Virus record (IMG/VR): IMGVR_UViG_3300045747_000694 | Location: 42,165-106,164 of that record | Direction: 5' to 3' (one strand) | DNA length: 64,000 nt | Source: a virus | Part shown: in pieces, positions 9,527 through 10,189 of the stretch | Layout: each line of letters opens with the position of its first letter | How positions within the stretch are numbered: position 1 is the stretch's first letter | Notes under the pieces: model-generated | What the model was told of the DNA's origin: nothing | What the model saw: the letters and a program-made list of their open reading frames with translations, nothing else | Database searches by the model: none | Made by a program: the position numbers and the translations under genes

Positions 9527-10189
9527 ATGCTACCGACAACTGGGACCATCAGGCTGAGGGGGGCTACGAGTACCGATACGAATGCGGTCAGTGTCGAGAT
9601 CTTTGGCACGCCCACCAACCTCAACCTCACGGCAACCATCGTCCGAACGCTGTTCGCTCTGGCGAGTGGCACGATCAAGCTGACGGATGGGTACGGCCAC
9701 TGCTACTCGAACTGCGGCTGCGATGCGAACTGCGGGTGTGATGTGAACTGCACCTGCGACGCCAATGGCGGCTGTATCTGCGACCTCTGCCCGTCCCCCG
9801 ACGTGCCCCTCGAGATGGCGGATGGCTCGGAGAAGCCAGCTGGCGAGATCGTGGTCGGGGACCTGGTCACCGCGTGGGACGAGGAGAAGCGTATCCTCAG
9901 CCCTCGCCGCATCACGTACGTCAAGCGGGGCGAGAACGTCAGGATGAGTCTCCTCCTGAGCAACGGCAAGTCTGGTGAGTTCGCCGTGAACCATCGCTTC
10001 CTCACGATCAGCAACACGTGGGCGGAGCTTCGGGACCTGAAGGTGGGCGACATCCTCTCGACTGGCGTCTCAGTGCTGGGGACGATGCTGACTGGCCCAG
10101 GCCCTGTGATCTCCATGCTCGTGGATGAGCTGCACACCTACGTCACGCTCGGCGTGGTGTCCCACAACGCCAAGTGCGGTAACCTCTGA
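9527..10189 (+). CDS. Cys-rich hexapeptide-repeat protein fused to a Hint (intein-like/BIL) autoprocessing domain
   Basis: aa 59-88 CYSNCGCDANCGCDVNCTCDANGGCICDLC. Then Hint blocks: C-PSPDVPLEMADGSEKPAGEIVVGDLV (A), FAVNHRFLT (B), VISMLVDELHTYVTLGVVSHN (F/G), followed by AKCGNL. Confidence 0.8.
   Translation: MLPTTGTIRLRGATSTDTNAVSVEIFGTPTNLNLTATIVRTLFALASGTIKLTDGYGHCYSNCGCDANCGCDVNCTCDANGGCICDLCPSPDVPLEMADGSEKPAGEIVVGDLVTAWDEEKRILSPRRITYVKRGENVRMSLLLSNGKSGEFAVNHRFLTISNTWAELRDLKVGDILSTGVSVLGTMLTGPGPVISMLVDELHTYVTLGVVSHNAKCGNL
9710..9781 (+). repeat. 4 x 18-bp in-frame tandem repeat encoding N-C-G-C-D-x type hexapeptides
   Basis: aactgcggctgcgatgcg / aactgcgggtgtgatgtg / aactgcacctgcgacgcc / aatggcggctgtatctgc. 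Confidence 0.85.

Follow-up and report, generated by a model that had tools for sequence, protein, structure and literature searches.

The window analysed here is a stretch of 64,000 nucleotides of the viral record IMGVR_UViG_3300045747_000694 (positions 42,165 to 106,164 of that record). At 9527-10189 on its plus strand lies an open reading frame (ORF) of 220 amino acids, in which a Cys-rich tract separates an N-terminal domain from a C-terminal domain of the Hint type. The gene of a radical S-adenosylmethionine (SAM)/SPASM enzyme is located two genes upstream in the same block of genes. In this study, we focused on the tract protein and this enzyme, which comprise the following features.

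7702..8826 (+): radical SAM/SPASM enzyme of 374 amino acids, the proposed maturase of the tract (Pfam, NCBIfam, PHROG and PDB matches)
9527..9700 (+): N-terminal domain, residues 1-58, with motifs of the G-x-I-x-L type, specific to the clade (alignments)
9701..9787 (+): Cys tract proper, residues 59-87, CYSN followed by (CxCDxN) units, with 9 Cys and 8 Asp/Asn
9788..10168 (+): Hint (bacterial intein-like, BIL) domain, residues 88-214, from Cys88 to His213-Asn214 (profile, AlphaFold2 (AF2), Foldseek)
10169..10189 (+): six-residue tail AKCGNL and stop codon, with Ala directly after Asn214

The Cys tract and its homologues

The original prediction had read positions 9701-9790 as a hexapeptide Cys repeat encoded by an 18-bp tandem repeat. 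The claimed peptide, CYSNCGCDANCGCDVNCTCDANGGCICDLC, is indeed encoded there in frame with the ORF, and Cys makes up 10 of its 30 residues. Nine of the ten Cys belong to the repeat, but the tenth (codon 9788-9790) is the first residue of the Hint domain, Cys88. Tandem Repeats Finder reported a period of 18 bp with 3.7 copies and 71% matches over 9708-9774. The four 18-bp units that had been placed at 9710-9781 are approximately right; they read, in order, NCGCDA, NCGCDV, NCTCDA and NGGCICDL, and the last of them is longer by two inserted codons. Of the 14 differences between units, 7 (about half) are at third codon positions, and the differences alter just 1-2 of the 6 residues per unit pair. 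For eight of the nine tract Cys, the third residue downstream is Asp or Asn.

Only a handful of homologues of the tract protein were found in a search of 5.8 billion clustered sequences, and one further homologue, on locus L009, was missed by the indexed search. They share the same anatomy: an N-domain of about 58 residues, a Cys tract and a C-terminal domain of about 127 residues. Homologues with 52-63% identity carry the tract in the same place with 2 to 4 CxC units, and the repeat number varies among homologues, from 2-4 CxC units here to more than 10 elsewhere. The idea that the repeat could expand or contract is therefore valid between lineages, but a present-day slippage hot spot appears unlikely because the units are too diverged (71% matches). 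A contingency locus, in which the tract would be prone to slippage today, was rejected for the same reason.

Since a tandem DNA repeat encodes the tract, it might be regarded as a chance low-complexity or slippage-prone repeat that serves no specific function. Residue shuffling of the ORF regenerated the Cys pattern only 3 times in 200,000, and the pattern was seen once in the 99,808 residues of the six-frame translation of the whole window. The conservation of the tract at 52-63% identity, the many unit differences at third codon positions and the strict co-occurrence with the enzyme described below also stand against a chance origin, which is effectively refuted and has a negligible probability in our estimation.

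The radical SAM/SPASM enzyme and its pairing with Cys tracts

The enzyme matches the Pfam family Radical_SAM (PF04055, 3e-9, 37.8 bits against a cut-off of 29.5) and is labelled 'radical SAM protein with 4Fe4S-binding SPASM domain' in its source database. The CX3CX2C motif, which in this superfamily binds the SAM-cleaving [4Fe-4S] cluster, lies at C17, C21 and C24 and is invariant in 19 enzyme homologues, as are C259, G272, C277, C316, C319, C327 and C354, and C324 is kept in at least 90% of them. SPASM domains use seven Cys for two auxiliary clusters, and the C-terminal Cys set of the window enzyme, with seven conserved Cys, is full. The top NCBIfam match is PapB (NF047865, 3e-19), followed by the CcpM, CXXX-repeat and SCIFF maturases; other matches are sulfatase_rSAM (7e-12) and quino_hemo_SAM (2e-9). 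The best PDB match is CteB (5wgg, 3e-22), and anSME (4k37, 3e-18) is the third best. The alignment to CteB starts at CteB residue 99, past its N-terminal recognition domain, and runs through the SPASM region; the window enzyme has no N-terminal peptide-recognition domain. It also matches phrog_1802 at 4e-30 and is separate from the named ranthipeptide maturase families. Judged from these matches, PapB and CteB, both ranthipeptide thioether synthases, are the characterised enzymes nearest to it.

The alignment of the 19 enzyme homologues was used for a wider search, which gave 80 viral-contig loci and 14 genome loci at 25-56% identity. The genome loci come from Halobacteriovorax, Peredibacter, Bdellovibrionales and some archaeal metagenome-assembled genomes. 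A regular Cys-tract ORF was present in 65 of the 94 fetched loci, and a regular-expression scan found such ORFs in 78 of 108 sources, 13 of these 78 being from the window's own clade. Nearly all of the tract ORFs are on the strand of the enzyme gene, and most follow it immediately. A looser scan detected variant tracts in about 12 of the remaining loci, which brings the total to about 90 of roughly 100 phage and prophage loci with a relative of the enzyme, and most of the other negatives are contigs that were cut short.

There are two main tract types, one of period 6 (e.g. CICNSDCSCNLVCACHNDCGCNY; CxC[DN]xx) and one of period 7, (CTCNCNY)n, which reaches more than 10 copies and sometimes occurs as several tracts in one protein. 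The Hint-containing proteins of loci L149-151 have a variant tract, CSSDCPSDACGC (CxxD, CxxD), and in these loci the enzyme gene is downstream rather than upstream. It had been suggested that the Cys/Asp/Asn pattern is under selection while other positions drift, and the pattern is kept: Asp or Asn stands at Cys+3 in 86% of cases in the window's Hint clade, and still in 71-78% in distant relatives with tracts of other periods (0.78 in the other hexads and 0.71 in the heptads). At Cys-3, the proportion in the heptads is merely 0.10. The Cys count roughly equals the sum of Asp and Asn across tract types. One rule, Asp or Asn three residues after Cys, is common to all of them.

Taken with the sequence relationships of the enzyme, we propose that the tract is the substrate of the operon's radical SAM enzyme. 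The ranthipeptide-type thioether formation put forward in the original prediction has strong circumstantial support from the co-occurrence and from an operon enzyme near PapB and CteB, and such thioethers are the most likely type of bond. It is possible, though unlikely, that the adjacent enzyme modifies the tract by another chemistry, such as formation of alpha-carbon (sactipeptide-type) thioethers, conversion of Cys to formylglycine, or C-C or C-O cross-linking; release by the Hint domain and the structural role would then be unchanged. The SPASM superfamily is chemically diverse, anSME (4k37, 3e-18) and sulfatase_rSAM (7e-12) are among the top matches beside PapB and CteB, the enzyme scores under all curated family cut-offs, and the heptad tracts conserve Thr and Tyr too. 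However, the anSME target motif is C/S-x-P/A-x-R, and this motif is absent, while Asp/Asn at Cys+3 with a stoichiometry of about 1:1 is as Cys-to-Asx cross-linking predicts. Moreover, both of the best-scoring characterised relatives form non-alpha thioethers.

Several other features were observed in loci of this family. A variant tract in L039 (6118-6642), directly downstream of the radical SAM gene, keeps the period but has both Cys and His (CNWSGDCHSNCHGNCNCHSDCHGNCWC). Many of the tract proteins that lack a Hint domain begin with a Cys/His-rich sequence (MACSGSHCSNH..., MACTGHCNQCIYH...; L031, L094, L011, L017, L020 and L029) and contain an internal 'I.A.H.N.LR..I..E..RRG' motif; the window's clade has neither the N-terminal nor the internal motif. 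In many loci (L015, L020, L022-L024, L034-L042 and others), one or sometimes two additional radical SAM-like genes of smaller size are found within 1-3 kb of the tract gene, and the window cassette has only one radical SAM gene. In L066 (3795-5981), the stop-free stretch with the radical SAM gene also matches the Hint profile (2e-7), which suggests either an intein in the maturase or a Hint domain fused upstream of it. L051 (8762-11342) and L079 (8785-10854) contain head-to-tail arrays of three to four paralogous heptad-tract genes, and most of these genes end in a 12-14-residue remnant of the start motif of the Peptidase_S74 (S74) domain (SDE.[LV]K..[VI]EY[IM]) rather than in a full S74. They are mostly separated by TAA and then ATG. 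Stop-codon read-through was considered for these tandem genes and rejected; at most of the junctions checked TAA directly precedes ATG, and the genes are therefore separate.

The Hint domain and what follows the tract

The C-terminal domain of the homologues begins with C-P-[AS]-P-[DE]-V and ends with S-H-N, after which 3-8 residues remain. In a comparison with the PDB, the family profile matched 8w20, an intein C-terminal splicing-domain protein, at 6e-8, Tetrahymena BIL2 (6y75) at 7e-7 and the Clostridium thermocellum BIL domain (2lwy) at 6e-4. The AF2 model of residues 89-215 has a pLDDT of about 90, and Foldseek with this model found BIL2 (6y75) at 7e-9 as well as DnaB mini-inteins and Hedgehog (1at0), with a target-normalised TM score of 0.7-0.77 to the mini-inteins. 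H156, H203-T204-Y205 and S212-H213-N214 are invariant in the homologue alignment, Cys88 is present in all seven full-length homologue sequences (7/7), and the homologues P0002, P0003 and P0005 have precomputed PF07591/PF14890 matches. By fold and catalytic residues, the domain belongs to the Hint superfamily. Pfam gave no Peptidase_S74 match in the window tract protein.

N-terminal cleavage is expected of Hint chemistry, as in BIL and Hedgehog domains, and the sequence of the window domain predicts cleavage of the Leu87-Cys88 bond via an N-to-S acyl shift. Except for one homologue with T, the Asn is followed by A, V or I throughout. Because no nucleophile follows Asn214 and only 3-8 residues remain, the window domain is BIL- or Hog-like and not an intein. 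A Cys is often found three or four residues past the Asn (AKCGNL, AKQCPPGA, VKNCPPGV), and some members do not have it.

The remainder of the protein has a different character. Residues 1-88 have a pLDDT below 50 in AF2; the failure to fold them next to a confidently modelled Hint domain is in keeping with a dependence of this part on modification, metal or partners. When residues 1-87 were searched exhaustively with phmmer against 1.84 billion representatives, only the clade and two spurious repeat proteins were returned, and comparison of the N-domain with the N-terminal regions of heptad-tract proteins by BLAST or hhalign (probability 0.2%) revealed no homology. The wider family therefore shares only the tract and the enzyme.

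In single-tract proteins, the tract is nearly always followed by a stop codon within a few residues, by the start of a Peptidase_S74 domain or by a Hint domain. In the S74 case, an 'SD.RLK..I' motif follows the tract, and the domain begins at profile position 1 right after '...CNY'. S74 scored above the Pfam threshold in all three of the tested proteins with full-length tails (L031, L047 and L072), and in some tract proteins the S74 start motif is reduced to 12-14 residues. A Hint domain after the tract occurs only in the window's clade and in L149-151. Multi-tract proteins (CP220-like, L023/L026) have internal tracts too. The single-tract proteins give the most forceful reason for regarding the Hint domain as a part meant for removal, because these three unrelated devices all leave a mature protein that ends in the tract.

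As a control, viral and metagenome contigs were searched with the Hint family alignment. The nearest related Hint domains (50-53% identity) cap proteins of 630-1190 amino acids after Gly-rich linkers, and remoter ones cap proteins with matches to tail fibre or central tail fibre J families (phrog_5616, 2e-63). None of these tail-capping Hint proteins has the tract, the enzyme or the partner genes mid and d1 described below. Of the 42 distinct proteins that carry related Hint domains, 9 have both tract and enzyme, 1 has the tract alone, 0 have the enzyme alone and 32 have neither (Fisher p = 2e-8, which overstates independence as the sequences are related). The lone protein with a tract only is on a 1.3-kb contig that has no upstream room for the enzyme. 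Two gene orders were seen among the Hint proteins, with the enzyme upstream or, in L149-151, downstream.

These counts also bear on the possibility that the tract serves as a metal-thiolate module, in which CxC motifs would bind Zn, Fe or Fe-S, possibly along a trimer axis, and that the radical SAM enzyme has another substrate. The CxC spacing and the very high Cys density would suit such a module, the tract alone is not folded by AF2, and the L039 variant mixes Cys with His. The tracts of relatives directly precede Peptidase_S74 domains, and known Peptidase_S74 domains assemble trimeric fibres. We nevertheless consider a metal module quite improbable, since it leaves unexplained why the tract comes with its own radical SAM/SPASM gene in about 90 loci, in three gene orders, why the enzyme is absent from all 32 tract-less Hint proteins and why Asp/Asn is conserved at +3. 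No metallothionein family is among the Pfam matches of the window protein at E <= 0.1. Both this possibility and another radical SAM chemistry depart from the model preferred here in chemistry alone.

An unusual arrangement was found in a marine phage protein at L128 (4173-5621; also L129 and L152), in which a Hint domain is followed by a Pro-/Gly-rich linker and then by the S74 start motif KSDLRLKKNI. This protein has two different self-cleaving modules in series, and its N-terminus has three 'IS[FA]S.L.R' motifs like those of the homologue P0007.

Association with tail genes

The enzyme family is found in the cultured Campylobacter Firehammervirus phages CP220, CPt10, CP21 and IBB_35. The tract protein of CP220 is gp140, annotated as hypothetical with a '21-bp repetitive region x.1-6'; its gene is 2.2 kb from that of the radical SAM protein gp136 and near baseplate genes. 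The genome paper of 2010 recorded the 21-bp intragenic repeat and 11 radical SAM genes, unlinked and with the repeat uninterpreted (PMC2853527). The gp140 orthologue of IBB_35, gene 3-9 (60.3 kDa), contains (CTCDCNY)x7 and is among the proteins detected by mass spectrometry in purified virions, with 2.6% coverage (PMC3322345 Table S2). Tract proteins match phrog_26958, a family of unknown function, and their S74 part matches virion and tail fibre families; there is no NCBIfam family for tract proteins. The window product is probably a protein module of a virion component rather than a small secreted peptide.

In the window, the enzyme and tract genes are part of a co-directional block with the following further genes.

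1625..7705 (+): tail fibre gene, 2026 amino acids, first gene of the block (Pfam Collagen 1e-30; C-terminal Peptidase_S74 4e-15)
8826..9518 (+): gene 'mid', 230 amino acids, predicted all-helical, with a one-base overlap with the radical SAM gene
10197..10496 (+): gene 'd1', 99 amino acids, follows the tract-Hint gene directly, conserved within this clade alone (tblastn, hmmsearch)
10493..10950 (+): two small genes, 48 and 101 amino acids, whose membership of the system is uncertain

The tail fibre has collagen-like repeats. Its gene matches tail fibre genes of Burkholderia phages over part of its DNA and shares an ATGA overlap with the radical SAM gene, between its own stop codon and the start codon of the latter. 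The tail fibre, radical SAM, mid, tract-Hint and d1 genes are translationally coupled or 7-8 nt apart, and no promoter-like site was found inside the block. The order radical SAM, mid, tract-Hint and d1 is kept on every homologous contig with enough flank, with enzymes that are 53-68% identical. The sole close homologue without a tract, P0007, has an immunoglobulin-like insert instead, and none of the three partner genes lies within 10 kb of it.

The mid gene sits between the radical SAM and tract genes in L001-3, L005-7 and L009/10/14 and is absent from all other loci, i.e. it is restricted to the clade with the N-domain-tract-Hint protein. The Mid protein has no Pfam, NCBIfam or PHROG match and no PDB or database homologue by indexed search, and AF2 gave a helical but poor model from the single sequence (pLDDT 46). 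It is possible that Mid is a partner for substrate recognition or folding. No Pfam or PHROG family matched d1. The 48-amino-acid protein has a hydrophobic C-terminal stretch that resembles a membrane helix, and its homologue is syntenic in L009/L010; the 101-amino-acid protein matches phrog_5084, a family of unknown function, at 5e-5.

A radical SAM gene with a Cys-rich substrate follows the logic of clusters for peptides made on ribosomes and modified after translation (RiPPs), and the predicted product is small (87 amino acids). The cassette might therefore make a released bioactive peptide, bacteriocin- or signal-like, in which the Hint domain replaces the leader or follower protease. Its position at the end of the tail block beside small membrane-protein genes, and the lack of structural annotation for d1 and mid, would be in keeping with this. 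However, Pfam, NCBIfam and PHROG scans found no exporter, immunity gene or peptidase in the block, and the cassette is translationally coupled to the tail fibre gene. Furthermore, the relatives are proteins of 150-540 amino acids with S74 domains of the tail fibre type, one of them has been detected in virions, and the related Hint domains cap tail proteins. We see little chance that the product is such a peptide.

Proposed mechanism

The following model builds on the anatomy of the protein, the Hint fold with its catalytic residues, the enzyme family, the operon and the co-occurrence of tract and enzyme. We propose, at somewhat better than even confidence, that the ORF encodes a precursor that cleaves itself to yield a small tail-associated protein, and that the operon's radical SAM/SPASM enzyme cross-links the C-terminal Cys-Asx ladder of this protein by thioethers. 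The precursor would consist of the 58-residue N-domain, the 29-residue Cys-Asx ladder and the C-terminal Hint domain. The enzyme would most likely join the sulfur of Cys to a carbon of the Asp or Asn at +3 to form ranthipeptide-like thioethers, and the ladder would then hold up to eight overlapping small rings. Cys88 is predicted to attack the carbonyl of Leu87 in an N-to-S acyl shift. Because no nucleophile follows Asn214, the thioester would be resolved by hydrolysis and not by splicing, which would leave an 87-residue protein with the cross-linked ladder at its C-terminal end. The product is probably late and virion-associated (tail or tail fibre), with the stapled ladder serving as a rigid, protease-resistant C-terminal module.

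Several points weigh against this model. For the window protein, thioether formation and cleavage are both deduced from sequence, and we likewise infer the type of cross-link, the order of events and the location in the virion. The enzyme scores 69 bits against a cut-off of 340 for PapB and is below the cut-off of every named maturase family (CcpM TIGR04068, 51/500; CXXX-repeat TIGR04115, 47/350; SCIFF TIGR03974, 28/425 bits), and SPASM enzymes also catalyse C-C bond formation, ether links, epimerisation and Cys oxidation. In the Hint domain, the Thr of block B is replaced (A-x-N-H), and the window protein falls below the Pfam Hint/Intein cut-offs (PF14890, 18.5 against 35.8 bits; PF01079, 14.2 against 29.7). 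The structural role is argued from context, as the N-domain has no detectable relatives. The member detected in virions is a distant one (29% enzyme identity), with only 2.6% peptide coverage, and the co-occurrence counts are phylogenetically non-independent.

A broader form of the model is plausible but doubtful. Phage radical SAM/SPASM enzymes may staple C-x-x-D/N ladders at the ends of tail or virion proteins into thioether rods or tips, which would be exposed by a stop codon, S74 or a Hint domain, and the Hint thioester might ligate the 87-residue module to a virion protein or to a nucleophile on the host surface. BIL domains in the Tetrahymena BUBL proteins ligate ubiquitin-like domains.

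Within an incomplete coverage of the literature, we found no published account in which Cys-Asx tracts of phage virion proteins are paired with a radical SAM maturase, or in which a radical SAM substrate tract is fused to a Hint domain. If the proposal is true, radical SAM thioether chemistry is a widespread phage route to hardened structural proteins, beyond small antimicrobial peptides, and the use of a Hint domain as a built-in release device for a modified protein is a new natural one. The many radical SAM genes of Campylobacter phages have been unexplained since 2010, and the tract offers a directly testable substrate for them. A compact, genetically encoded staple ladder, (C-x-x-D/N)n, could interest peptide engineers, and there is a possible bearing on tail fibre stability and host recognition in biocontrol phages.

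Genome context

The remainder of the window contains the following features of note.

11126-11683 (-): SLT lytic transglycosylase, about 100 nt from the tmRNA gene
11774-12142 (-): tmRNA gene, complete (105 bits in Rfam, over positions 1-374 of the 374 in the model; tag ANEPMFAQQLAAA)
14081-14926 (+): GGDEF diguanylate cyclase, syntenic in L009/L010
30687-33332 (-): major-vault-protein-like gene, 881 amino acids (MVP_shoulder 2.5e-27, Vault_3 2e-9)
47131-48624 (+): lysin-type protein with GH108 and PG_binding_3 domain matches, 497 amino acids
59705-61864 (-): class II (B12-dependent) ribonucleotide reductase (Pfam)

The window also encodes an AAA ATPase and a SLOG protein, and many ORFs have no Pfam match. 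Its GC content is uniform (0.61-0.68). The vault-protein match is unusual for an apparent large phage genome or bacterial contig. The tmRNA gene lies about 830 nt past the end of the tail-operon block. A prophage attachment site at this gene was considered but is less likely, as the gene is complete, no integrase is adjacent and the rest of the window is phage-like; with no integrase as a neighbour, the tmRNA may instead be phage-encoded. The window's contig measures 153 kb, and a relative of 198 kb with conserved synteny was classed as viral. Given the complete tmRNA gene, the lack of an adjacent integrase, the phage-like gene content and this viral relative, a large phage genome (150 kb or more fits) is more likely than a prophage at a tmRNA gene.

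Comparison with known systems

The ranthipeptide systems (PapA/PapB of freyrasin, SCIFF CteA/CteB and NxxcA/NxxcB) likewise have an enzyme gene beside a Cys-rich substrate with spaced Asp, Asn or Thr acceptors. Their repeat motifs, CxxxD in PapA and NxxC in NxxcA, resemble the C-x-x-D/N rule of the window. However, the window enzyme scores far under the family cut-offs and does not have the N-terminal recognition domain of CteB. The phage substrates range from 87 to more than 500 amino acids rather than being peptides of about 45 residues, their tracts have a +3 spacing, and the proposed rings overlap. Unlike the ranthipeptide systems, the window system is phage-borne and tied to tail genes; its block has no exporter or peptidase, and release in the phage family would be via a fused Hint domain, S74 or a stop codon. 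The definition of ranthipeptides as RiPPs, a short leader-core peptide bound by a RiPP recognition element together with a protease and export, does not describe what was found in the window.

In the QhpC/QhpD system, the gamma subunit of quinohemoprotein amine dehydrogenase and its maturase, a radical SAM/SPASM enzyme installs several thioethers, between Cys and Asp/Glu, in a lasting structural subunit and not in a peptide antibiotic, which makes it a precedent for the role proposed here. This system differs from that of the window in its enzyme subfamily, in being non-viral and in having neither a repeat tract nor a self-cleaving domain. Regularly spaced metal-ligand motifs are known from the tip of the T4 long tail fibre gp37, in which HxH repeats bind iron, and high Cys density from metallothioneins. 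The HxH of gp37 can be compared with CxC in the window, but these proteins have no dedicated modifying enzyme, and the Asp/Asn at +3 has no explanation by analogy with them.

The Peptidase_S74 chaperones of phage tail fibres and endosialidases are C-terminal domains that remove themselves once assembly is complete, and in many relatives S74 stands at the exact position of the Hint domain. The window's own tail fibre ends in Peptidase_S74. The two domains are unrelated in fold and mechanism, S74 using a Ser-Lys dyad in a trimer and Hint a Cys thioester. With BIL, Hedgehog Hog and PT-HINT domains, the window domain shares the fold, Cys1, the block-B His, the C-terminal His-Asn and the lack of a +1 nucleophile. 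PT-HINT frees a downstream toxin, whereas the window Hint domain ends its protein 3-8 residues past His-Asn, so that only the N-terminal cargo matters. Compared with BIL and Hog domains, it belongs to a phage-specific subgroup that caps tail proteins, and its Cys1 directly abuts the proposed radical SAM substrate tract.

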